Source: a virus. Taken from it: 64,000 nucleotides of DNA. The stretch is taken from positions 3,635 to 67,634 of the IMG/VR virus record IMGVR_UViG_3300030329_005612; one strand, 5' to 3'. The position numbers were made by a program, and so were the translations under genes. Of this stretch, positions 3,575-47,882 are shown in pieces; the stretch's first letter is position 1; each line of letters starts with the position of its first letter. The notes under the pieces were generated by a model. That model was not told the origin of the DNA, did not search any database, and saw only the letters and a program-made list of their open reading frames with translations.

Positions 3575-3672
3575 TTCCAAAAGAATACCATACACAAAAA
3601 TAAATACAAGACTTTTTTTGAGTTAAGTTGTTCACAGTGAAATGTTAATAAAAAAAGCTTGACAAGTCGAAC

Positions 3673-18189: not shown

Positions 18190-18202
18190 AATAAATAGTC
18201 GG

Positions 18203-18277
18203 TAGGGATGAAGGGACTCGAACCCATGACCCTCTGTTTAGAAAACAGATGCTCTATCCAAACTGAGCTACATCCCC
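18203..18277 (-). tRNA. tRNA-Arg(UCU), no encoded CCA
   Basis: Cloverleaf; anticodon stem TCTGT/ACAGA with loop TTTCTAA; T-loop TTCGAGT. Confidence 0.9.
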
Positions 18278-18394: not shown

Positions 18395-18787
18395 TTAATT
18401 ATATTCATCCCAAATTTGGTCGTCATCACATTTCCACTCTAAAAACGTCATTATTTGGCCGAAACTCAATCGAGTTTTACATAGCCAAGGTTCAAACTCC
18501 TTTGCCTTGGTGTGGCCTTTTTTCGATGCTTTAAAAGCTGTCCAGTCTATCTCCGCAAAATCATCCTCTGCTGGCTGCTTCATGCTTCCCACTAACATCA
18601 CCTTATTTCCAAGGTCATATTCTCTTGTGGAAGTCGTAACCGCAAGAATACCCGCTTTAAATTTCACATACACAAAGTTTCCACGGGGAGTCATGCACCG
18701 CCATTCATCTTTACTGTAGCGATAGACACAGGCAAGTTTCTTACCTTTGAGTGTCTCAAAGTGTTTCTTGTCAAGAACTTGTAACAT
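18395..18787 (-). CDS. Hypothetical protein
   Basis: 130-aa ORF overlapping the end of the sigma factor gene. Confidence 0.6.
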   Translation of the reverse strand: MLQVLDKKHFETLKGKKLACVYRYSKDEWRCMTPRGNFVYVKFKAGILAVTTSTREYDLGNKVMLVGSMKQPAEDDFAEIDWTAFKASKKGHTKAKEFEPWLCKTRLSFGQIMTFLEWKCDDDQIWDEYN

Positions 18788-19778
18788 GATTTTTTGTCTC
18801 CTGCTCTATAAACTTTTTTAATTTTTGTAAGGCAATCTTTTCAAGCTGTCTTATCCTTTCTCTAGTTACCCCAAGTTTCTTTCCAATTTCCTCTAGTGTC
18901 TTTTGCTCCTCATTTTTTAATCCAAAACGTGAAGAAATTATTTGGGCTTCTCTAGTTGTTAATTTATTTAAATGTTTTTTCAAGCAATTTACCTCATCAG
19001 AAGATTGGCAAGCCTCGGCGGGAGAAGCCGCTTTAGAATCTTGAATTAGCGACTCTAGGTCTAACGAGTGGGAGGTACAATCTTCATGGCTGTAAGAATC
19101 ACGAATAGCTGGAGCATTGAGAGACTGTGGATTATAATTATTATTTAATACGCTTACTGTAAATGCCCGTGATACTTTAAATTTTTGCTGAATATGCTCG
19201 TCAGAGGGGCGCACACCTGTTTTACTTTTTTGTTCTTCAATGTATTTTAAGACTTTTTTTAAAGTGTCTTGAACCCCGCACGGCAAGCGAATGAGGCGAC
19301 TCTGTTTAGCGATAGTCCGCAAAATCTGCTGCTTAATCCACCACGATGAATAAGTGGAAAATTTAACTCCCCTTTCTACATCATATTTATCTGCCGCTTT
19401 CATTAGCCCAATGACTCCTTCGCTTACCAAGTCTTCATAGTCCACTGAATTATACCACCTTCCATCAGACCCTGACCCATGAGACCTTCCTCCCCACCGA
19501 ACATACTGCCCTGCAATCTTCATCACAAGACGCACGTTAGCTTCAACTAACTTATTTTTAGCTGTATTTCGGATTTTCTTGCTACGACTTTTTAATTTCT
19601 TTCCTAGCTTTATTTCTTCCTCTCTTGTAAGGAGAGGGGGTAAGTTGTCAAACATTGGTCTGCTGGGGTCGTGGGACAGAGTAATGGTCTTTCTACTTCT
19701 GATAGCCCGTGAAATTTGAATATCGTCGCTACCTGTTGGCCGTCCCGCTCGAAAACCTTTCATAATACCACAGTTCAT
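18771..19778 (-). CDS. RpoD/RpoS-family sigma70 factor
   Basis: LLTREEE (1.2), LVEANVRLV, DLVSEG..GL, KFSTYSSWWIKQ, RLIRLP and TLEEIG...VTRERIRQLE. Confidence 0.95.
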   Translation of the reverse strand: MNCGIMKGFRAGRPTGSDDIQISRAIRSRKTITLSHDPSRPMFDNLPPLLTREEEIKLGKKLKSRSKKIRNTAKNKLVEANVRLVMKIAGQYVRWGGRSHGSGSDGRWYNSVDYEDLVSEGVIGLMKAADKYDVERGVKFSTYSSWWIKQQILRTIAKQSRLIRLPCGVQDTLKKVLKYIEEQKSKTGVRPSDEHIQQKFKVSRAFTVSVLNNNYNPQSLNAPAIRDSYSHEDCTSHSLDLESLIQDSKAASPAEACQSSDEVNCLKKHLNKLTTREAQIISSRFGLKNEEQKTLEEIGKKLGVTRERIRQLEKIALQKLKKFIEQETKNHVTSS

Positions 19779-20372: not shown

Positions 20373-20383
20373 AAAGAAATAGT

Positions 20384-20535
20384 GGATGAGAGGATTTCTG
20401 CGATACCTCTAAAGCCAGCACCCAATACAGTTCATGTTTGCCAGCTTGCCTACCCCACAAGGCTCATACGATTGCACTCTGCCGCTGTGGAGCAACACCT
20501 TTCCCCTTGAGATACAAGGATATTCAGTCACATCC
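20384..20535 (-). ncRNA. manA-motif-like structured RNA
   Basis: GGATG/CATCC closing helix; GTGACTGAATA 5' segment, AGGTGTTGCT, AGGCAAG, ACTGT and GAGG-TATCGCAGAAAT-CCTC 3' hairpin recall the manA RNA of marine phages (from memory). Confidence 0.55.
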
Positions 20536-20607
20536 GTTAAGTTCTCCGTCGAGAACTTAAATTTTAAAAGAACAATAGATAGATTATATTCTACCTTAAT
20601 ATATTAG

Positions 20608-39617: not shown

Positions 39618-41162
39618 TTATTTCATTCCTTGGGGAAAAGTTAGTTTATCGGCATGATTCACCGTCCAACTTACTTCATGTGTGACAGCCCTGAAAGTTC
39701 TAGCTGCACTGGGAAAACCATTTCCAGACTTCTTGACTCCTCCAAAGGCAAGATGTGATTCGGCTGCAATAGAGCCACCATTCCAGTAAATCATACCCGC
39801 TTCACACTCGTCTCTTAATACTCGTGCTTTTCTGAAATCATTAGTAAGAACTCCTACCGCTAATCCATACTCTGTATCATTATAAATCCGAATAGCATCT
39901 TCCAAAGTATCAAAAGGAATAATGGCTACGTGAGGACCAAAAACTTCATTGCGTAAATAAGGGGCGTCACCCCCGCGCCATTCTACTTTATAAATCATGG
40001 GTGTAGAAAAGAAGGCTCCATTATCAGTAGTGTAGGTGGGGTGTAGCACTACGTCTGCTTGGGGGTCGTCTATAACCATTTGGTTGTACTGGCTAACTTT
40101 ATTGAAGGCTTGTTCATTAATGAGAGGTCCATAATACATTTCTTTGTTCACAACCCACTCTTCCCAAGCTACCACTTCAGGCATTCCAGTAGACTTTGTT
40201 ATTTGTATAAATGGATTGCCAGTTTTTATATCTTTACTTTTTTCAACAAACCGTGATACGAATTCATCATATACCGTACGCTGAACTATTAACCTTCCAG
40301 AAGAAACACACCGTTGACCAGAAAGTTTATATGCGCTAGCCACAGCCGCTTCAAGTGCGAGGTCCATTTCTACGTCATCAAAAATGATACAAGCTGACTT
40401 ACTGCCCATCTCACACGATGTTGTTTTATGCCAGCTGTCTGCTGCAACCCTTCGTATGTGTTGCCCTACTTCTGCACTTCCTGTAAAACAAATATGATCT
40501 ACATCATCGACGGCTAAAAGGTTTCCTGTATCTCCTTCTCCATGAACCAAATTAATAACACCAGCTGGAATACCAGCTTCTTCATAAATTTCTATAGCTA
40601 ACTGAGATGACATGGGTGCATCTTCGGAGGGTTTGAGTATTACAGTGTTCCCTTCTACAAGGGCTGGCGCAGCACACCAGTACGCTCCAATAGCCAAAGG
40701 AAAATTAAACGGAGATATAATTGCTATTACACCTTTTGGCTTGCGTAGCATGTAGGCATCTTTATCTTCTATCTCAGACGCTACTGCTTCGCCGTGAGAA
40801 TATCTACCTGAACCAAACGCAAATTGAGCCATATGTAAAGCTTCATTTACCTCTGCTATGGACTCGTTATAGTTTTTACCTGTCTCTAGTGAAATAACTT
40901 CTGCTAGCTCTTCTTTTCTGTTTTCAATTATTTGAGCTACCCTGTTCATGTAATCAGAGCGCACAAATCTGCTAACTTTTTTCCACTTATGGAAAGCTTT
41001 CCTCGCAGATTTAACTGCTAAATCCACCTCGTTAGGTCCACTTAATGGGAATGCACCTAAAGGTTTTCCTGTGGATGGATTAATATTATGGTAGCTGCTT
41101 TCATCCTTGGTGTGAGGCAGGCTCCACTCTCCATTAATATAATTTTTTCCTTCCATGTTCAT
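39618..41162 (-). CDS. Aldehyde dehydrogenase
   Basis: ISPFNFP, LKPSE, FTGS, CEMGSK, GQRCVS, EVFGP and FGGVKKSG. Confidence 0.95.
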   Translation of the reverse strand: MNMEGKNYINGEWSLPHTKDESSYHNINPSTGKPLGAFPLSGPNEVDLAVKSARKAFHKWKKVSRFVRSDYMNRVAQIIENRKEELAEVISLETGKNYNESIAEVNEALHMAQFAFGSGRYSHGEAVASEIEDKDAYMLRKPKGVIAIISPFNFPLAIGAYWCAAPALVEGNTVILKPSEDAPMSSQLAIEIYEEAGIPAGVINLVHGEGDTGNLLAVDDVDHICFTGSAEVGQHIRRVAADSWHKTTSCEMGSKSACIIFDDVEMDLALEAAVASAYKLSGQRCVSSGRLIVQRTVYDEFVSRFVEKSKDIKTGNPFIQITKSTGMPEVVAWEEWVVNKEMYYGPLINEQAFNKVSQYNQMVIDDPQADVVLHPTYTTDNGAFFSTPMIYKVEWRGGDAPYLRNEVFGPHVAIIPFDTLEDAIRIYNDTEYGLAVGVLTNDFRKARVLRDECEAGMIYWNGGSIAAESHLAFGGVKKSGNGFPSAARTFRAVTHEVSWTVNHADKLTFPQGMK

Positions 41163-41397: not shown

Positions 41398-41751
41398 TCA
41401 ATCTCTCCATATCCGATAGCTATCTTCGTCTTTATGGAATGTGCTACTTTCAATAATAACACAGTCTGTTAAGGCTTCTATTTGGTGGGGAACCAACCTA
41501 TCAATGGTATAGCAATCCCCCTCATTTAACGGAAGAGAGACTTGTGTAGCCGTCTCGGTGTCAATGCTTCGGAGTATGCACATCCCCTCTAAAATATAAA
41601 ACGTTTCATGTTTATCAGAATGATAATGCATACTAAACTTGTGGCCATTTTTTATATTGAGAATCTTGCCACAGTAATTATTTTCCTCATCATTAGCTAG
41701 CCAAAGCTCATGCCCCCATATTTTTTGAACTTTTTTGGGCTTATTTTTCAC
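41398..41751 (-). CDS. Cupin (sugar isomerase-like)
   Basis: KIWGHE, SMHYH..KHETFY, PH and ESSTFH..EDSYR. Confidence 0.8.
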   Translation of the reverse strand: MKNKPKKVQKIWGHELWLANDEENNYCGKILNIKNGHKFSMHYHSDKHETFYILEGMCILRSIDTETATQVSLPLNEGDCYTIDRLVPHQIEALTDCVIIESSTFHKDEDSYRIWRD

Positions 41752-41793: not shown

Positions 41794-42864
41794 TTATAAA
41801 TTAGAATAAACCTCACTCTCCTTGAAAGAATTTAAAAAATACTTACCCGTAAGCTTTTTTCTAGTATCGCAAGTTTTTAAATACTCGTGGGTACGATAGA
41901 TTAAATCCATATTGAACATTTTTTGAACAGCCTCTTCCATACAGCTAAAGTAAAAAGGGTAATCCTCCCCCAAGTACTCAATGGTGGGGGGAAGCGGGTT
42001 AACTAAAATGGGAGTAGCTCTCGCAATAGCCTCAATAATTGAATTGCTTGCGCTGCACGTGTATACATCTAGAAAAATAATATTTTCTGAAAAAATATCA
42101 TCATACTCTTCATTACTAAGCTTGTGAAGCTCTTCTACATAACCAGTTTCCTCTGAATAATAATAGTTATGATTTACGGAGGTAGAATAGTCGTACCTTA
42201 ATTCCTTTAGCCTAAGACCATGAACAAACTGATGAGGAGAACTATTGGCCTCATAAGGGAGAATTCTGGTTTTTGTATAAATGTTATTATCAACAGGAAG
42301 ATAATAAATAGAATTAATTTTTCTCAACCAGTACCCTACATTAAGAAGTCTTTTCTTTGGGTTCTTTAAAAAGTTATTAAAATTAAATTGCTTTTCTGGT
42401 ATTTCAGTAGGATGACAAAGTACGGACACAGGCACATTTACAAGGTTGCGGTAGAAGTCTGCGTGGTATTCTGTTAAAGTAAATAACCCTAAACAAGAAT
42501 CTATACTTTTTTTAAATTCAGGCATATTAATTATTACCTCAGGAAGACCTTTAGGGCCAAACCACCACGGGTAATTTTGAGGGTTATGGAAAAACCCCAC
42601 CCAAGGTTTACGGATAGGTACTACGCCGTTGCTTTTACATTCGTCTAATCGCCAATAAAATTCATTCTCCAAAAAACCATAAAATGATATTCCACGAGAG
42701 TTGTGAAGGGGCTCTAGGGCTCCCACTGCATAATCCCAGCCACTTCTGTGGGTTGAAAAGGTAGGCTGCTCAGTCAATTGTATTTTACCATTGGGGTTGT
42801 CTCCAGAAAACGTTGTGGTATCCTGCCCCCATTCATTTACGCGTACCTTAGAAACCTTTGACAT
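41794..42864 (-). CDS. Glycosyltransferase-like protein
   Basis: WVGFFHNP, HPTE, GYWLR, SASNSIIEAIARATP and EYLG.DYP; GT-B-like C-terminal motif. Confidence 0.55.
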   Translation of the reverse strand: MSKVSKVRVNEWGQDTTTFSGDNPNGKIQLTEQPTFSTHRSGWDYAVGALEPLHNSRGISFYGFLENEFYWRLDECKSNGVVPIRKPWVGFFHNPQNYPWWFGPKGLPEVIINMPEFKKSIDSCLGLFTLTEYHADFYRNLVNVPVSVLCHPTEIPEKQFNFNNFLKNPKKRLLNVGYWLRKINSIYYLPVDNNIYTKTRILPYEANSSPHQFVHGLRLKELRYDYSTSVNHNYYYSEETGYVEELHKLSNEEYDDIFSENIIFLDVYTCSASNSIIEAIARATPILVNPLPPTIEYLGEDYPFYFSCMEEAVQKMFNMDLIYRTHEYLKTCDTRKKLTGKYFLNSFKESEVYSNL

Positions 42865-42878
42865 TATATTTAAATTAT

Positions 42879-43160
42879 TTAAAACTCATAAAGAAGTTCA
42901 TTATTAAACATTATTTTAACATAATCTACCTTGCAAGTTTGTTTAATTGTTGATTTAGCAAAATCAGTTAAGGATTGCGGGATTGCATGGTATAGATCAA
43001 TTGCTTGCTGATGGCGTTGCTTACGATTGCATGAACAGCCATGGGGTAGTCCCCTCATTAAGTCTATGAATAGACGCTGCAAGGGGTCTACGACATCACC
43101 AATGCTCTGAAGCATTGCTGTCATTCCATTGAGGTCAGAGACTATTAATTCATTCCTCAT
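42879..43160 (-). CDS. Hypothetical protein
   Basis: 93-aa ORF with GCSCNRK. Confidence 0.55.
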   Translation of the reverse strand: MRNELIVSDLNGMTAMLQSIGDVVDPLQRLFIDLMRGLPHGCSCNRKQRHQQAIDLYHAIPQSLTDFAKSTIKQTCKVDYVKIMFNNELLYEF

Positions 43161-43516
43161 AAAGTAGCAATCCTAACTATTATAAAATAGATTACCAAGC
43201 TTAACAAATAAAGTAAGCAAAAATAAACTAAACCTATAGCCAAAGAAATAAAGAAAGAATACCATATTCCCAAACAGAATGGACAGGTAATAAGTCTAGT
43301 AATGAAGCAATCTTTCCTCACGGTGAGAAAAGAAATGTAATCACCACTATAATCTTCACGAACATACTCCTCGTATTCATCAAGACATAACATTTTATTT
43401 AATTTAAAAAGCCTTCCATATTCTACAACAGCATTCGTTTTAAACCAGACTGTAAATATAAAAGAAATAAATGAACTAAAAATTAATAAAAGCTCAATAT
43501 TTATCACCTTAAACAT
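43157..43516 (-). CDS. DUF1360-like membrane protein
   Basis: LITCPFCLGIW between hydrophobic helices. Confidence 0.55.
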   Translation of the reverse strand: MFKVINIELLLIFSSFISFIFTVWFKTNAVVEYGRLFKLNKMLCLDEYEEYVREDYSGDYISFLTVRKDCFITRLITCPFCLGIWYSFFISLAIGLVYFCLLYLLSLVIYFIIVRIATL

Positions 43517-43574
43517 CTTAGCAATTATATAAGTTCTAATTTAATTTAACAAAATTTTTGTTGAAAAAGTGTGA

Positions 43575-43972
43575 TAACTTTTCTCGGAACATTAGGAGAC
43601 ACTAGTACCCCCCCAAAGGGGGGATACTGTATTTAGTGTGTGTATATAACTTTTCTTCGGCCCCTTTAAATTATTTAATGCGGAGGGGATTTGAAACTCC
43701 GCGACACAAAATACTGGCGATTAACTAAAATCGCGATAGCCTACCACTAAATGGCGGGAGGGACTGTGCTCAAAAACTCCGCTTACGACTATCTACCACA
43801 ACACGCTGGGCATTGCCATAGTAATTAACTATGCGTCCTTGTTCTCGTGTATTTGAAACGAGAGGCTACCCTTTGATCTGGAAGTAAGCCAACTTCCCCC
43901 CTACTGCATTCGGTTTGTCTCAGGAAACTCCACTGATTACTCTCAGCGAGCTTAAAAGGAATTCCGCCTTTT
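43575..43972 (-). ncRNA. ~400-nt structured non-coding RNA candidate
   Basis: ORF-free, GC-enriched, about ten hairpins, own promoter TTGACA-17-TATCAT at 43977-44005. Confidence 0.55.
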
Positions 43973-44001
43973 GGGTATGATAATACCCCTAGAAGGATTT
44001 G

Positions 44002-44517
44002 TCAACTATTTATGAAACCCGTACTCCCAAAACCTTTTGGCCCCCGGAAACTTTCTCCAAGCTGATCTACTTCTTCCCACTCAATTTCTTGACACTTTTC
44101 AATTATTAATTGGGCAATTCTATCTCCTCTGTAAAAATTTATACTTTTATCACAGCCGAAGGAAGACTTCTCAGAATTAACACTAGTTACCCACGCTTGG
44201 GAATTATATTTTTTTTCAAAAAGAGAAGAAGGTAAATTTAAGTTAATAATAATAATTTTTATCTCCCCCCGATAACCTGAATCAATAATACCTCCGAGAA
44301 TATGTAAACCCTTGTTTACAGCTAGGCCGCTGCGCGGAGCGATTCTTCCATAGTATCCCTCAGGAATTTCTATACAAAGACCAGTGGAAACACAGGCCCT
44401 TTGCATGGGGCCTAAAATAATAGGGTCTTCAGTATGCAAATCATAACCAGCGTCACCCGGTAAAGATTTACGCGGGAGAGAGATACCCTCATGTGCTCTG
44501 GTGATATTAATTTTCAC
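44002..44517 (-). CDS. dut: dUTPase
   Basis: AGYDL, IAPRSGLA, GIIDSGYRGEI, GDRIAQL and RG.KGFGSTG. Confidence 0.97.
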   Translation of the reverse strand: MKINITRAHEGISLPRKSLPGDAGYDLHTEDPIILGPMQRACVSTGLCIEIPEGYYGRIAPRSGLAVNKGLHILGGIIDSGYRGEIKIIIINLNLPSSLFEKKYNSQAWVTSVNSEKSSFGCDKSINFYRGDRIAQLIIEKCQEIEWEEVDQLGESFRGPKGFGSTGFINS

Positions 44518-45374
44518 TTCTTAGTAGATTTCTTTTTTCTAGACTTCTTTTCTTTTCTGTCTACACATTCATTTCTAAAAATTGCAGCGGGTAATATATA
44601 CCCCTCCATTCCTACGCTCAACATTTGAGAATATAGTGATTTAGTGTCCTTGGGAAAACATGTCCCCCCAAATCCCTTTTTGCCATCTGGGCCCGGAACC
44701 TGAGTGTGACTCGAGCCAATCCTTTTATCCAGACGCACTATTTCAACAACACTGTTATAATTAATTTTTTGTTTTCTACAAAATTCTTCCATCTCATTAA
44801 AGAAGGATACCTTAATCGCCAAGAAATTATTTCGTATTGCTTTTACAGTCTCTGCTTCACCCGTTGAACAAAAAACTAAATTAGCATTTTTAATTTTTCC
44901 GTTACGTTTGGCAGTAATAAACATCTTACGAACTAGTTTCTTGAGGCGCGCCCCAAGTGGGCCACTCAGCAGGAGGAGACCCACAATCCAATTTTCACAA
45001 TTATAAACATCTTTTTCCCAATTTCTTTCAGTAAGAAACTCAGGCATGTAATTGACACCCAACTTTTTAGACGTTCCCACTGGTACTGTAGATCGTATAA
45101 AAATTCTAGAGTTATCAACAGGCAAAGAGTTCACTACTTCCTCTACCATAGAGGTGTCACAGCTACCATCTTTGTCTTCGGGCGTGGGGACACAAACGAA
45201 AACCAGATCACAAACCTTGAGATCGTCGAGCTTCGTGTCAGAGGGAATACATTTCTTAGGGTCGATGTCGTAAGTGATTACTGTATTATCTTCCACATCG
45301 GCGTAATTGTCTTTACAACCGAATAAACGAGTGGCTCCACCCACATAACCATTTCCTACTACTCCAATAATCAT
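44514..45374 (-). CDS. ugd: UDP-glucose/GDP-mannose dehydrogenase-family protein
   Basis: GNGYVG, VCVPTP, RSTVPVG, PEFL and GFGGTCFPKD; lacks the C-terminal domain. Confidence 0.85.
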   Translation of the reverse strand: MIIGVVGNGYVGGATRLFGCKDNYADVEDNTVITYDIDPKKCIPSDTKLDDLKVCDLVFVCVPTPEDKDGSCDTSMVEEVVNSLPVDNSRIFIRSTVPVGTSKKLGVNYMPEFLTERNWEKDVYNCENWIVGLLLLSGPLGARLKKLVRKMFITAKRNGKIKNANLVFCSTGEAETVKAIRNNFLAIKVSFFNEMEEFCRKQKINYNSVVEIVRLDKRIGSSHTQVPGPDGKKGFGGTCFPKDTKSLYSQMLSVGMEGYILPAAIFRNECVDRKEKKSRKKKSTKK

Positions 45375-45826
45375 GACATTTTAACTGTAATTTGTGAATC
45401 TTCAGTAAAGGCTGCGTGAATTTTAATTCTTTGCAAGTTAATGCCAAGGTCTTTACACAGTTCTAAAGAGGAGCTATCATAATGATAAATATCCCCAAAA
45501 ACGATGGTGGCGATTCCATAAGCTGCAACAGATTTTAAGCAATCATTACAGGGCAAGTGAGTACAAGCCAAGAGACTGCACTCGTGAGGCTTAACATAAC
45601 GCAGGGCATTTACTTCTGCGTGAACCACCCTTCGACGCCTTTCGTCTCGATTATCCCACTTAATCTCTATATTAGGAGGGGCTCCATTGTAACCAAGTGC
45701 AGCTACACTCTTGTCGTGACGCAAGACAGAACACCCTACCTGAAGATAAGGGTCTTCACTACGACAAGCAGCTACCTTGGCAAGCTCTAGAGCATACCTT
45801 TCCCATGACATCCTTTTATTTTTCAT
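45371..45826 (-). CDS. dCMP deaminase
   Basis: RSEDP, GYNG, HAEVNAL and PCNDC. Confidence 0.93.
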   Translation of the reverse strand: MKNKRMSWERYALELAKVAACRSEDPYLQVGCSVLRHDKSVAALGYNGAPPNIEIKWDNRDERRRRVVHAEVNALRYVKPHECSLLACTHLPCNDCLKSVAAYGIATIVFGDIYHYDSSSLELCKDLGINLQRIKIHAAFTEDSQITVKMS

Positions 45827-45831
45827 AAATT

Positions 45832-45918
45832 TGGTGGGGAAGGCGGGACTTGAACCCGCATAAGCTAATGCTCGACAGATTTTAAGTCTGTTGTGTATAC
45901 CAATTCCACCACTACCCC
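45832..45918 (-). tRNA. tRNA-Leu(UAA)
   Basis: Cloverleaf with long variable arm, loop CTTAAAA, encoded CCA. Confidence 0.93.
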
Positions 45919-45920
45919 AC

Positions 45921-46169
45921 TTACGGACTTTCGACTTGTACCTTTTTATAGATTACGGTGGGACGCCCCATCTTTTGCTGCTTGGAGGTTCCTACCTTTT
46001 GAAGCTTCCCATCTGCAACTGCTTTGTTCACCTTGAGTTGAACTGATACAGGGGATAGCTTTCCCTCTAAGGAAGTGTAGACCTCTCTCACTGAAAAGGT
46101 GTTTTCAGGCCAATTCACACTAAAAGAGGGGCGACCTTTCTTACGAGGAGTGTTAGTAGTATTATTCAT
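45921..46169 (-). CDS. Small winged-helix/AT-hook DNA-binding protein (start MNNTT)
   Basis: KKGRP and MGRP..Y motifs; perfect TTGACA-17-TATAAT 7 nt upstream. Confidence 0.7.
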   Translation of the reverse strand: MNNTTNTPRKKGRPSFSVNWPENTFSVREVYTSLEGKLSPVSVQLKVNKAVADGKLQKVGTSKQQKMGRPTVIYKKVQVESP

Positions 46170-46176
46170 TGGGTAA

Positions 46177-46205
46177 ATTATAAAACCTTTTATTATTAAT
46201 GTCAA
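46177..46205 (-). promoter_or_regulatory. Consensus sigma70 promoter at the strand-switch point
   Basis: TTGACA-ttaataataaaaggttt-TATAAT. Confidence 0.85.
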
Positions 46206-46249
46206 ATATTATTTTGCATTTTTATCATTTTTGTGGGATATTATTTTAT

Positions 46250-46663
46250 ATGACTGTTTTAGAAGGCTCAGGCAAATTATTTGAATGGTTTTCGCAAAAG
46301 GATAAATTTAATTTTGATGAAGACATGGGAAAACTATTACCAAAAGCAAAAAAAGAAGAAAGGGCTGCAATTAAATGTGCTCTTGAAGAATTTGAAAAAA
46401 TGGATGTTCTCAAATCTACAGATATCAACGCTGAAAGATACTGGATTTTAAACAAAAAATTTGATACCTTTGAGCAAGACCTCAAGATTTCACCCAAAAC
46501 AGGATTACTTATTTCACAATTAATTAATAATTTTTGTGAAATTCTAGAGATAGAAGATGAAGAATGCGATCCGCGCAACATCACCGAACAAGATATTAAT
46601 AATCTTCTGTTGATATGTTATCGCTTCATAGACAACAAGGAAACCGACCCCTCTAAAAACTAA
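46250..46663 (+). CDS. Hypothetical protein (start MTVLEG)
   Basis: First gene of the plus-strand block. Confidence 0.65.
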   Translation: MTVLEGSGKLFEWFSQKDKFNFDEDMGKLLPKAKKEERAAIKCALEEFEKMDVLKSTDINAERYWILNKKFDTFEQDLKISPKTGLLISQLINNFCEILEIEDEECDPRNITEQDINNLLLICYRFIDNKETDPSKN

Positions 46664-47322
46664 TGAAAACTCCATTTTTTATAGGTCTTTCGGGAATAGC
46701 TGGCTCAGGCAAGGATACCTTTTTTGAGTTTTTGAATTTAGAGTTACAAAAAAAAGACATAAAGGTTAAGCGTTACTCTTTTGCTGATCTGCTTAAAGAT
46801 GAAGTGGCTCCATGGACTTTACAGCATTACAAAATTGATGCTCGGGACTGCTCTCGAGAGGACAAAGAAAAAATTAGACCATTTTTGATTTTTCACGGAA
46901 CCTACAAAAGGTATACTAGCAACGGAAGACACTGGGTTAATCGTCTCAATGGGAGAATTAAGTGTGAACTAGAAGAGGATAATAATATACCTGATATTAT
47001 TTGCATAACAGATATAAGATATAATCATTACCCCCTTGATGAAGTTTACTGGCTAAAAAAAGAAAAAAAAGGTGTTTTAATCCACATTAATCGCTATAAA
47101 GAGGGGAAAAAGCGCGTTGCGATGATTCCTGAAGAAGAAAAGCACACCCCCAAGGTAGAAAGAGCAGCTGATTATGTAGTGAACGTAAACACAGTAGAGA
47201 AAAGCAAAATGCCTGAAGTTATTAGTGCTAAAATTTGTCCAATATTGCGCTGGCTCCAGACCTCAAAAGAAGTAAGCGAAGGTGGCTATGAATGGCAAAA
47301 ATCACTGACACAGAACTTGTAA
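46663..47322 (+). CDS. Deoxynucleoside monophosphate kinase-like protein
   Basis: IGLSGIAGSGKDT, SFADLLK and ITDIRY. Confidence 0.8.
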   Translation: MKTPFFIGLSGIAGSGKDTFFEFLNLELQKKDIKVKRYSFADLLKDEVAPWTLQHYKIDARDCSREDKEKIRPFLIFHGTYKRYTSNGRHWVNRLNGRIKCELEEDNNIPDIICITDIRYNHYPLDEVYWLKKEKKGVLIHINRYKEGKKRVAMIPEEEKHTPKVERAADYVVNVNTVEKSKMPEVISAKICPILRWLQTSKEVSEGGYEWQKSLTQNL

Positions 47323-47882
47323 AAAATGTAAAATTAAATTCCTGCAATAGCAGCTTAAAAGAATTAATTTACAGACACTCTGCTCTGTGTGTAGATATAT
47401 GTAAGAAATATACCCCAGCCCTCCAAGCGTCCGGGGTTTCTGTTGATGACGTTTACAAAGATAAAGATTACATTGTTTACAAATCGGCGTTAAGCTTTAA
47501 TCCTAATAAAAATGTAAAATTTTCTACATGGCTGGGAAATCAAGTTAGATACTATTGCTTGAACACTATTAACAAGAATGGAACCTTGCTATCAGTAGAC
47601 ACTGATCATCTTGATTATCTTTCGTCCCAAAAAGAAGATTTAAATGAAAAAAAATATGACCTAGAAATAGAATATGTTTTTACCATCTTATCCAAACTCA
47701 AAGACACCCGCATAAAAGATGTTTTTAATTATCGTTATTTTAAAACCAATAAAAACAAAATGCCTTGGTCTGAAATTGCGCTGAAAATGGGGATAAGCAC
47801 CCAAACCGCCATTAATCTCCACAAAAGAGGAATTAAAATTTTAAATAAAAAAATGAATTCCAATGATCCTGACATTATATGA
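47292..47882 (+). CDS. Divergent sigma70-family factor (regions 2 and 4)
   Basis: FNPNKNVKFSTWL (region 2.3); C-terminal HTH WSEIALKMGISTQTAINLH. Confidence 0.75.
   Translation: MAKITDTELVKNVKLNSCNSSLKELIYRHSALCVDICKKYTPALQASGVSVDDVYKDKDYIVYKSALSFNPNKNVKFSTWLGNQVRYYCLNTINKNGTLLSVDTDHLDYLSSQKEDLNEKKYDLEIEYVFTILSKLKDTRIKDVFNYRYFKTNKNKMPWSEIALKMGISTQTAINLHKRGIKILNKKMNSNDPDII

Follow-up and report, generated by a model that had tools for sequence, protein, structure and literature searches.

A pseudoknotted RNA family, probably transcribed on its own, in large uncultured marine phages

Layout of the locus

The window analysed here is a 64,000-nucleotide stretch (positions 3,635 to 67,634) of the viral record IMGVR_UViG_3300030329_005612. 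On its minus strand, positions 44005-43569 hold a sigma70-type promoter, ~375 nt without an open reading frame (ORF; the RNA strand has none that reaches 30 aa), a G/C hairpin and a pair of direct repeats (Table 1). These elements had been described in an initial annotation of the sequence, and all of them are present. Upstream lies a dUTPase gene (dut), whose stop codon is overlapped by the -35 hexamer of the RNA promoter, and downstream lies a DUF1360-like ORF. Transcription switches strand at ~46.2 kb, roughly 2.2 kb from the RNA and in agreement with the ~2 kb given previously. Cumulative GC skew reaches its minimum at 45-46 kb, also near the RNA, but since skew tracks transcription direction here, it is no independent evidence for an origin.

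Table 1 Features of the locus in window coordinates, with the RNA elements in 5' to 3' order of the transcript
Feature	Position	Strand	Details
Winged-helix ORF (ORF140)	46250..46660	+	137 aa; most constant gene neighbour of the RNA
dUTPase gene (dut), upstream	44002..44517	-	PF00692, E = 2.7e-32
Promoter of RNA	43977..44005	-	-35 TTGACA 44005-44000; 17-nt spacer; -10 TATCAT 43982-43977
Predicted RNA, P1 to end of terminator tail	43598..43972	-	~375 nt; both ends predicted
P1 hairpin	43954..43972	-	AAAAGG/CCUUUU; arm-swap 13.87 native vs 13.39 swapped, 48/2000 as high; 10 distinct arm pairs
P2 hairpin	43925..43953	-	AAGCUCGCUG/CAGU-N-GAGUUU; one-base 3' bulge; 8-nt loop AGAGNAAN
P3 around small hairpin P3a	43898..43924	-	CCU/AGG; P3a arm-swap 1/2000; P3 by eye, uncounted
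P4 hairpin	43880..43897	-	GGAAGU/ACUUCC; loop GGCU 43890-43887 is PK-A 5' strand
PK-A 3' strand	43864..43867	-	AGCC; partner P4 loop
P5 hairpin	43843..43863	-	UCUCG/CGAGA; loop AAAUAC 43854-43849 is PK-D 5' strand
PK-B 5' strand	43835..43838	-	GGAC; partner GUCC 43764-43761 in P9 loop; 100% paired
P6 hairpin	43815..43834	-	CAUAGU/ACUAUG; 5/6 pairs changed on both sides; 99% paired
P7 short hairpin	43796..43809	-	CCA..UGG; 94-95% paired, little variation; arm-swap 15/2000
P8 long-range helix	43735..43793	-	GAUAGUC 43793-43787/GGCUAUC 43741-43735; 7/7 pairs changed on both sides; 94% paired
P11 variable hairpin	43717..43734	-	GCGAUU/AAUCGC; 15 distinct arm pairs
PK-D 3' strand	43709..43714	-	GUAUUU; partner P5 loop; in J11/12 linker; 12.22 native vs 9.51 swapped, 0/2000
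P12 hairpin	43680..43702	-	GCGGAG/CUCCGC; loop CCCC 43688-43685 is PK-C 5' strand
PK-C 3' strand	43661..43664	-	GGGG; 92% paired; 2/4 pairs changed on both sides; arm-swap 11/2000
Direct repeat R1	43640..43660	-	CCGAAGAAAAGUUAUAUACAC; purine-rich linker joining fold to terminator
Terminator-type hairpin	43599..43639	-	extended stem ACACUA..UAGUGU
Direct repeat R2	43569..43587	-	CCGAGAAAAGUUAUCACAC; directly past terminator, 5' of next promoter
Promoter-like site of next gene	43524..43552	-	TTGTTA; 17 nt; TATAAT; 10/12 match
DUF1360-like ORF, downstream	43157..43516	-	119 aa; weak PF07098 match, E = 1.3e-4

The promoter read in the initial annotation, TTGACA-17-TATCAT, matches 11 of 12 consensus positions and ranks second among 13 promoter-like sites in a scan of 42800-46400, which makes it a predicted promoter by consensus match. 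Among the 22 family members with upstream sequence, a TTGA[CT]N hexamer lies 46-53 nt 5' of a conserved 18-mer in 19 and at -40 in one further member (20/22 in all), and the promoter is kept beside the RNA under either upstream gene, dut or the winged-helix ORF140. By eye, the -10 hexamers are poor in several members, and in 15 loci the -35 hexamer lies inside the coding end of ORF140, so that promoter conservation could partly come from the protein.

At the other end, GTATCCCCCC-TTT-GGGGGGGTAC is the sole C5+/G5+ hairpin of the 64-kb window. The G run is followed by at least five T in 9 nt in 20 of 23 members; the window copy has four, so the scan made no terminator call here and, for want of a proper U tract, read-through is likely at this copy. 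Relatives carry similar promoter-like sites 3' of R2, as judged by eye. Taken as a whole, the arrangement suggests that the RNA is probably its own transcription unit.

A family of related loci

Searches of viral and metagenome contigs yielded 49 related loci besides the window. With the 18-mer, true loci were 11/11 in viral contigs and 32/46 in metagenome contigs (44 of 69 records including the window), and a second motif gave 13 new loci of which 6 were true. A covariance model of the central domain recovered 46 of 84 sources at E ≤ 1e-8 and no chance loci. Several of the counts below use 23 non-redundant members. The family HMM matches the window once, at 43980-43542 (E = 3.5e-104), and one boundary rule applied across the family gives member lengths of 332-377 nt. 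The loci come from uncultured marine phages, mostly large (up to ~175 kb).

No family member was found in 185,579 prokaryote species genomes, where none of 11 matches to the 18-mer was genuine. In 50,697 cultured-phage records, a 751-nt stretch had no match, the 76-nt 5' motif had 6 chance matches only and ORF140 had no match. A 9-base identity was seen to what we take to be a stretch of 16S rRNA.

Rfam 15 was scanned at three levels. At gathering thresholds the window contains two tRNAs and a manA RNA, all outside the locus; at E ≤ 10, positions 43400-44150 gave five matches, all far below threshold (best 22 bits versus 50); and at E ≤ 1, ten other members gave three chance matches only. The comparison against GOLLD, ROOL, OLE, 6S and introns that the initial annotation had proposed thus matched no family, and RNase P, tmRNA, group I and group II introns, raiA, HEARO, riboswitches and small ribozymes were equally unmatched in Rfam 15. 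ARAGORN, including permuted tmRNA forms, called neither a tRNA nor a tmRNA in 43500-44010, in line with the earlier remark that signatures of RNase P, tmRNA and introns are lacking. Full-text literature searches turned up no description of the RNA, and one may still exist. On these searches the family appears to match none described.

Comparative evidence for the fold

Folded alone, the RNA is within chance expectation (minimum free energy -115.8 kcal/mol, z = -1.87, 3 of 100 shuffles as good). Since one-sequence folding is unremarkable, the case for structure rests on comparison; the methods applied were anchor windows, arm-swap testing and a single covariance model of the central domain. In a sequence-only alignment, 38 pairs were 97.3% paired compared with 42-53% in slid controls, with 81 compensatory cells versus 28.7 ± 4.9 in shuffles (0/500). 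In the model alignment of the central domain (32 distinct sequences), whose fitting to the nested helices inflates their percentage paired, 28 pairs were 96.0% paired compared with 35-47% in slid controls, 19 of the 28 had changed on both sides and compensatory cells numbered 167 versus 60.3 ± 8.1 (0/500). PK-B and the arm-swap tests are free of this bias: the swap gave 0/2000 for P4, P5, P6, P8, P9, P11, P12, PK-A, PK-B, PK-D and the terminator, and 362-1824 of 2000 for six non-partner control pairs.

RNAalifold found only 32 pairs on a plain MAFFT alignment, because variable hairpins are misaligned there, and a naive scan of all columns against each other gave mainly noise from G-U and A/U runs. 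Since two conserved motifs served to collect all members, to count their own invariance as evidence would be circular. Covariation among relatives, suggested at the outset as a check, proved strong, and compensatory change beyond the controls places the locus with structured RNAs. Substitutions preserve ~12 helices and four pseudoknots (PK-A, PK-B, PK-C and PK-D), and the locus almost certainly encodes a real structured RNA.

All seven hairpins that had been picked out by eye of the single sequence match helices kept in relatives: AAAAGG/CCTTTT is P1, GCTGA/TCAGT part of P2, GGAAGT/ACTTCC P4, TCTCGT/ACGAGA P5, CATAGT/ACTATG P6, GCGATT/AATCGC P11 and GCGGAG/CTCCGC P12. P2 is 100% paired but invariant in the first member set, because the 18-mer used to collect that set is the P2 sequence itself; in members found through the second motif P2 does covary, with CUC/GAG replaced by CCC/GGG or CCU/AGG and GCUG/CAGU by GCCG/CGGU. 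P7 appears in some relatives as a clean stem with a GUGA cap or with a GCGAAAGC insert. Enclosed by P8 are an invariant GUAAG, P9 (43782-43754, with a conserved 16-nt loop; 99% paired) and P10 (43754-43744; 86% paired). A candidate pairing of P10 with the linker after PK-C was rejected as inconsistent (35/2000).

The pseudoknots vary in step on their two strands. PK-A is found as GGCU/AGCC, GGCA/UGCC, GGUA/UACC, GGCC/GGCC and GGUU/AACC, with GGUC/GACC seen by eye; PK-C as CCCC/GGGG, CCCA/UGGG and GCCA/UGGC; and PK-D as AUACG/CGUAU, AUGCGA/UCGCAU, CUGCA/UGCAG and CCGUA/UGCGG. In PK-B, three of four pairs changed on both sides in an alignment whose model left this pseudoknot out. Conserved unpaired stretches comprise GUAAG, GGUAG, the AGCACAG loop of P9 and CCUGAGAU after P2, in members that are ~60% identical overall, and some members have GNRA-type caps (GUAA, GUGA or GAAA).

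The invariant AGC/GUU base of P2, together with its bulge, is reminiscent of group II intron domain V and of the metal-binding hairpin known from these introns and from U6. Domain V is a 34-nt hairpin near the intron 3' end that combines an AGC triad and a GNRA tetraloop with a 3' bulge of 2 nt. Identity with domain V was rejected: P2 lies near the 5' end with a 1-nt bulge and an 8-nt loop, and no Intron_gpII match was found at E ≤ 10.

The earlier interpretation as a novel large non-coding RNA holds, given the 49 other loci, the compensatory change and the absence of Rfam 15, tRNA and tmRNA matches; its idea of T-loop-like loops does not. A T arm has a 5-bp stem and a 7-nt UUCRANY loop. Only 4 of 23 non-redundant members have the motif TTTCAAAT in their P12 loop, and P5 does not conserve it either, its AAAUAC part there being a strand of the covarying PK-D; the loops are 11 nt long and ARAGORN was negative.

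Direct repeats around the terminator

Exact copies of GAAAAGTTAT occur at 43656-43647 and 43584-43575 only; the window holds no further R copy, and no copy with up to one mismatch lies near these two sites. R1 and R2 flank the terminator in every member, as had been seen for the single sequence, and R2 accompanies the RNA in both gene arrangements. The repeats change together between phages, tolerating 1-2-nt indels: R1 scores 26.1 against the R2 of its own phage versus 16.9 against those of other phages (0/5000 permutations, 22 members). They stand 52-72 nt apart, and these distances follow no clear helical phase. Pairing partners were sought inside the RNA and in the 140 nt downstream and rejected for both repeats, for R2 with 606/2000 and inconsistent positions, and for R1 with 4/2000 yet a different place in each phage.

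Neighbouring genes

ORF140 lies within 4.5 kb of the RNA in 19 of 23 loci, and the remaining four have <550 nt of upstream sequence; linkage is thus 19/19 where flanks suffice. In 15 loci ORF140 is directly upstream on the same strand, a position held by dut in the window. As ORF140 is the first rightward gene, the RNA of most relatives lies ~0.5 kb from the point of divergent transcription. An AF2 model of the protein (pLDDT 88.6) has winged-helix proteins as its best fold matches, at weak E-values of 8e-3 or worse, and a MarR-type profile matches weakly (E = 0.028). No PHROG was found among 19 members, and searches of the Atlas and of Pfam gave no usable match and a single sub-threshold match, respectively.

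On the 3' side, 9 loci have a dNMP-kinase-like gene next and 5 a DUF1360-like one, with others further off, and nucleotide-metabolism genes (dUTPase, dCMP deaminase and dNMP-kinase-like) surround the RNA. The block of promoter, RNA, R1, terminator and R2 stays together while neighbouring genes change. In one relative (L002, 35% of whose genome is covered), the DUF1360-like homologue directly abuts dut with no RNA between, and both the RNA motif and ORF140 are absent from the covered part. tRNA genes lie at least 2 kb from the RNA, with none found in most loci; on one related contig ARAGORN calls a tmRNA apart from the RNA. The 67.6-kb record contains no reverse transcriptase (PF00078).

Distant homologues of ORF140 were searched with an alignment of 7 sequences. 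The RNA is present at 12 of 44 ORF140 loci, and the other 32 homologues have no match to the RNA model, so the protein does not depend on this particular RNA. At 22 of 31 other ORF140 loci examined, the same place is taken by an ORF-free conserved stretch of 407-490 nt, also with paired repeats. This second non-coding stretch is apparently unrelated to the RNA.

Preferred reading and alternatives

The reading that best fits this pattern, which we put close to but below an even chance, is an independently transcribed, trans-acting folded non-coding RNA that probably works with a protein. Host sigma70 RNA polymerase would transcribe it early from TTGACA-17-TATCAT and stop at the G/C hairpin. The folded RNA would then act in trans, bound by a protein; as a guess the partner is the accompanying 137-aa winged-helix protein, and otherwise a host factor. 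Winged helices usually bind DNA rather than RNA. The single-stranded, purine-rich R1 tail would be a copy of the R2 site past the terminator, and the RNA and the R2 site may compete for, or be bridged by, one binder, which, being shared, would force the repeats to change together. A role specifically as a trans-acting protein-binding or decoy RNA is a tentative assignment, somewhat short of even.

An unlikely alternative is that the RNA serves as a primer at an origin of replication: by hybridising to the template strand at R2 and at the AT-rich-looking stretch (by eye) downstream, the early transcript, or just its R1 tail, would form an R-loop and prime the leading strand, with the winged-helix protein as an origin-binding factor that takes the two repeats as iterons. 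R1 in the RNA is the non-template strand sequence at R2, so a need for base-pairing would explain the co-variation without any protein. The RNA also lies near the divergent-transcription point (2.2 kb in the window) and the GC-skew minimum, and a small gene of DNA-binding type adjoins the element. T4 origins, as excerpts of PMC3016281 describe them, use R-loop RNA primers near transcription-strand switches; at oriE there are direct repeats, and an early promoter is required. Primer transcripts, however, have no need of a fold with ~12 helices under conservation and four pseudoknots that covary. The repeats number just two, at variable spacing; the skew follows transcription direction; a 40-nt hairpin stands 3' of R1, so that an annealed 3' end would require processing; and L002, as far as it is covered, lacks the element.

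The family might instead be a ribozyme, or the catalytic RNA of a ribonucleoprotein, with its size, pseudoknots and conserved unpaired nucleotides forming an active site, which we regard as quite unlikely. The complex fold, unpaired stretches that persist despite ~60% identity and GNRA-type caps suggestive of tertiary contacts all speak for it, as does P2, which keeps its AGC...GUU base, a G-U pair and the 3' bulge where the rest of the helix covaries. Against it, no ribozyme or intron family in Rfam 15 matched at cut-offs as loose as E = 10, the sequence shows no logic of a substrate, splice site or cleavage site, and the 8-nt P2 loop is no tetraloop. To our knowledge, no catalytic activity has been shown for GOLLD, ROOL or OLE. 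A long shot is a new catalytic RNA class or RNA-protein machine of marine phages in which the four-pseudoknot core would be the active site and would work with the winged-helix protein on R1/R2, perhaps in processing, priming or joining nucleic acid there.

Control in cis, by a riboswitch or attenuator leader that governs terminator read-through into the next gene and perhaps senses nucleotides, is improbable. The RNA does sit among nucleotide-metabolism genes, a terminator separates the fold from the next gene and that gene is dNMP-kinase-like directly 3' in 9 loci, but the downstream gene varies, a separate sigma70-like promoter lies 3' of R2, and an antiterminator pairing with the terminator was looked for and not found. 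Neither a constant gene nor a switchable platform is seen, and known aptamers are far smaller than this fold. A decayed tRNA or tmRNA, a mobile-element remnant or plain spacer with chance hairpins is hardly credible: the T-loop-like TTTCAAAT loops, the absence from L002 and the single-sequence z of only -1.87 would fit, but this reading is already contradicted by the compensatory change over 32 distinct sequences, and the motif is not conserved, ARAGORN and Rfam are negative, the window has a single copy and a related contig has its own tmRNA call.

Large, intricate RNAs without known relatives are rare, and past cases have been ribozymes, riboswitches and the RNA halves of new enzymes. The carriers here are large uncultured phages of a lineage that is widespread in the ocean, and experiments can take hold of the four pseudoknots that covary, the protein found constantly beside the RNA and the co-evolving repeats. 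The second conserved stretch after distant ORF140 homologues hints at a broader, undescribed phage protein-RNA module. An origin role, if true, would give the first origin model for these phages.

Comparison with known systems

The RNA resembles tmRNA in its ~350-nt size and string of H-type pseudoknots, but has no tRNA-like domain or tag reading frame, and ARAGORN and Rfam are negative. Like the decoys CsrB/RsmZ and GlmY, it is a structured RNA that would display a single-stranded copy of a site, R1 resembling and co-evolving with R2; unlike them, it has one motif copy, its binder is putative and R2 may stay untranscribed. HEARO, or omega-RNA, with IscB is likewise a structured RNA paired with one small ORF, here directly upstream in 15 of 23 loci, but the ORF in question encodes a 137-aa winged-helix protein and no nuclease, Rfam gives no match, and neither a guide segment nor transposon ends are seen at the new RNA.

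With the R-loop primers of T4 oriF/oriG, as portrayed in excerpts of PMC3016281, and with ColE1 RNA II, the locus shares a promoter-driven transcript near a strand switch, direct repeats and a downstream stretch that looks AT-rich by eye; it differs in its conserved tertiary fold and in a terminator that precedes the repeat with which the RNA could pair, the hybrid being only hypothetical.

GOLLD and ROOL measure 500-800 nt. They form homo-oligomers, according to PMC12286853. The new RNA is smaller at 332-377 nt, has no Rfam match, does not lie beside tRNA genes and belongs to a marine phage lineage without a cultured member, yet it is alike in kind: a large, multi-helix, pseudoknotted, stand-alone phage RNA without known function.

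Genomic setting of the RNA

The phage (IMG/VR source record of 67.6 kb, completeness estimate 43%) has a top protein match of <46% identity among 50,697 cultured-phage records, and a search of 50,697 records found the RNA absent from cultured phages. The RNA locus is a 485-nt minus-strand gap separating dUTPase (dut) from a DUF1360-like ORF, and its DNA was found in metagenome runs of several studies (marine, seawater and plankton). With its two sigma-factor-like ORFs, the phage may redirect host RNA polymerase. L054, a related contig of 175 kb, also has a member of the RNA family; on it, an ARAGORN call adjoining tRNA-Arg and tRNA-Gly may represent a phage-encoded tmRNA.

Features of the window and of related loci (window coordinates unless a locus is named)
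Feature	Position	Strand	Remarks
RNA	43972-43598	minus	inferred, non-coding, ~375 nt; helices P1-P12, pseudoknots PK-A to PK-D
R1	43660-43640		direct repeat
R2	43587-43569		direct repeat
Promoter-like -10 after R2	43524-43516		also in relatives
DUF1360-like ORF	43157-43516	minus	119 aa
dUTPase	44002-44517	minus
ORF140	46250-46660	plus	137-aa winged-helix ORF
rIIA			gene in window
Class I ribonucleotide reductase			gene in window
dCMP deaminase			gene in window
dNMP-kinase-like protein			gene in window
Sigma-factor-like ORF	18771-19778	minus	phrog_351, E 1.5e-58
Sigma-factor-like ORF	47292-47882	plus	phrog_351, E 8e-9
Aldehyde dehydrogenase	39618-41162	minus	apparent auxiliary metabolic gene, E 3e-125
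Cupin	41398-41751	minus	apparent auxiliary metabolic gene, in 'cysteine dioxygenase' PHROG
UDP-glucose-dehydrogenase-like ORF	44514-45374	minus	apparent auxiliary metabolic gene, part of N-terminal domain missing
tRNA-Leu(UAA)	45832-45918	minus	ARAGORN/Rfam scans
tRNA-Arg(UCU)	18201-18277	minus	ARAGORN/Rfam scans; also at five related loci
manA RNA (RF01745)	20379-20557	minus	64.7 bits versus threshold 55.2
tmRNA call	L054:9572-9978	plus	ARAGORN, 407 nt, tag end ...VAVAA
Class II non-coding stretch	L094-L128, e.g. L120:6408-6896		downstream of distant ORF140 homologues

A covarying RNA family

The dUTPase led to a single relative, L002 (48% identical), in which dut abuts the DUF1360-like ORF with zero gap and whose record (35% of that genome) has neither RNA motif nor ORF140. 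Comparing contigs of four marine runs, we found a 14-kb contig that spans the whole stretch with ~3% difference, and the block at 43925-43960 on many further contigs with differing flanks. Within the RNA, the differences of this near-identical strain (run X5) are concentrated at P3-P5 (43855-43924) and around the terminator (43602-43635), with no difference listed for the central and 3' core (43640-43837). An 18-mer of the block gave 11 loci from viral contigs, 46 from metagenome contigs and 11 from species genomes. A family profile built on nine 18-mer loci was applied to 69 records, the window included, and identified 44 as homologues, full or contig-truncated; the remaining 25, among them 11/11 species-genome loci, match the 18-mer alone and were rejected. 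A second motif, the P9 loop, gave 13 new viral loci, comprising 6 true members and 7 chance matches in coding sequence. The first set clusters to 24 distinct sequences at 97% identity.

When 23 members were aligned with plain MAFFT (alignment A2) and only helices clearly in register were counted, 38 pairs were 97.3% paired, versus 42–53% with partners slid by 1–3 columns; both sides had changed in 12 pairs, and there were 81 compensatory cells versus 28.7 ± 4.9 after shuffling (0/500). Because variable hairpins were misaligned in A2, we added an alignment-free arm-swap test, which compares the best duplex of two arm windows from the same phage with duplexes from arms of different phages. Permutations scoring as high as the native arms numbered 0/2000 for P4, P5, P6, P8, P9, P11, P12, PK-A, PK-B, the terminator and a fourth pseudoknot between the P5 loop and the P11/P12 linker, 1/2000 for P3a and 11–48/2000 for PK-C, P7, P10 and P1; six purposely wrong window pairs gave 362–1824/2000. 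For the central domain, a covariance model (115 positions, 24 pairs) detected 46 of the 84 sources with E-values no worse than 1e-8; it hit no chance locus. The corresponding alignment (32 distinct rows) has 28 pairs, 96.0% paired versus 35–47% when slid, with both sides changed in 19, including 7/7 of long-range helix P8, and 167 compensatory cells versus 60.3 ± 8.1 (0/500). PK-B, left out of the model, is 100% paired and covaries in 3/4 pairs. Collection of the first set with the P2 sequence accounts for P2 being invariant there; members recovered through the second motif carry compensatory changes in this helix and keep its AGC/GUU base. There is good support for a genuine RNA family with a compact fold.

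The candidate promoter, seven hairpins, G/C hairpin and two GAAAAGTTAT repeats proposed in the initial annotation all lie where it placed them, while its suggestion of T-loops failed, the T-loop-like loops varying among family members. Its description of the RNA as novel fits Rfam 15, which has no gathering-threshold match at the locus; five matches at E up to 10 each fall far under threshold. None of 4227 Rfam 15 families was matched by the window copy, ten other members or the class II stretch described below, and ARAGORN found nothing at the RNA locus. A full-text literature search, which cannot establish unpublished status, found no description of the RNA. The fold of the single sequence is unremarkable (z −1.87; 3/100 shuffles equally good) and not better than chance allows. 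Chance hairpins and a decayed tRNA were considered and excluded.

A movable block with putative transcription signals and paired repeats

Among the 22 members for which upstream sequence exists, 19 have a TTGA[CT]N hexamer at a fixed upstream distance and one more has it at −40. In 15 loci this hexamer overlaps the end of the upstream ORF, where an acidic C-terminus is encoded, and in the window it overlaps the dut stop codon; it therefore travels with the RNA. At least five T occur in the 9 nt after the 3' hairpin in 20/23 members (four T in the window copy).

On either side of this putative terminator hairpin, every member has a 20–30-nt repeat (R1 and R2, spaced 52–72 nt). R1 scores 26.1 against R2 of its own phage versus 16.9 against R2 of other phages (22 members; 0/5000 permutations), and small indels between R1 and R2 recur at the same places across members. 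Searches found no further R1/R2 copy in the window and no consistent complementary partner. A single factor may bind both copies; alternatively, base pairing may occur between R1 in the RNA and R2 in the DNA, or R1 may be a mimic of R2. The promoter-like −10 after R2 lies only 7–12 nt 5' of the next gene's ATG; a Shine–Dalgarno sequence is not visible for that gene in several members, and GGAGGA is present in others. So short a distance without a Shine–Dalgarno sequence would mean leaderless or near-leaderless mRNAs.

Directly 3' of the RNA block, the gene is dNMP-kinase-like in 9 loci and DUF1360-like in 5, window included. Since neighbours differ between loci, the promoter–RNA–R1–terminator–R2 block has moved relative to them. 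ORF140 lies within 4.5 kb at 19/23 loci (upstream sequence is shorter than 550 nt at the remaining four) and directly upstream on the same strand at 15. Its model is confident (pLDDT 88.6), with a winged helix and two C-terminal helices; weak fold matches are to winged-helix proteins, for example DsrD, viral F-112, BlaI/MecI and MarR types, and a weak profile match is to the MarR type.

A second non-coding stretch beside ORF140

In a reverse test, the search was begun from ORF140 rather than the RNA. Homologues occur at 44 viral loci, 12 with the RNA; the other 32 (34–47% identity) have no RNA-model match at E up to 1. An ORF-free stretch of 407–490 nt lies immediately 3' of the homologue at 22/31 loci examined; at eight more a short ORF call alone falls within the stretch, and one locus ends too early. 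Seven of the short-ORF loci are in the class II alignment, and their stretch is homologous to that of the other loci there; the alignment of L127 is poor. This class II stretch, about 430–490 nt long and conserved among 17 distinct sequences, has a TTGAC start, apparent hairpins with variable stems under GNRA caps and two direct repeats that co-vary between phages and contain AAGGAAAAG..GCGAUGG, the second sharing GAAAAGUUAU with R1/R2 of the window. It matches neither the first-RNA profile at E up to 10 nor Rfam 15. In several members, the repeats resemble a ribosome-binding site and AUG heading 13–16-codon ORFs.

Possible roles

We tentatively favour a trans-acting, protein-bound RNA because the family has its own putative transcription signals, a movable intact block, a varying downstream gene and a constant protein neighbour. 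A primer RNA at a replication origin, as the initial annotation had also suggested, is the one reading that explains R1/R2 identity through base pairing; it leaves the elaborate fold unexplained, and we regard it as improbable. A ribozyme is less probable still, and a cis-acting leader very unlikely. Among known systems, T4 offers a precedent for the origin-primer reading, according to passages of PMC3016281.
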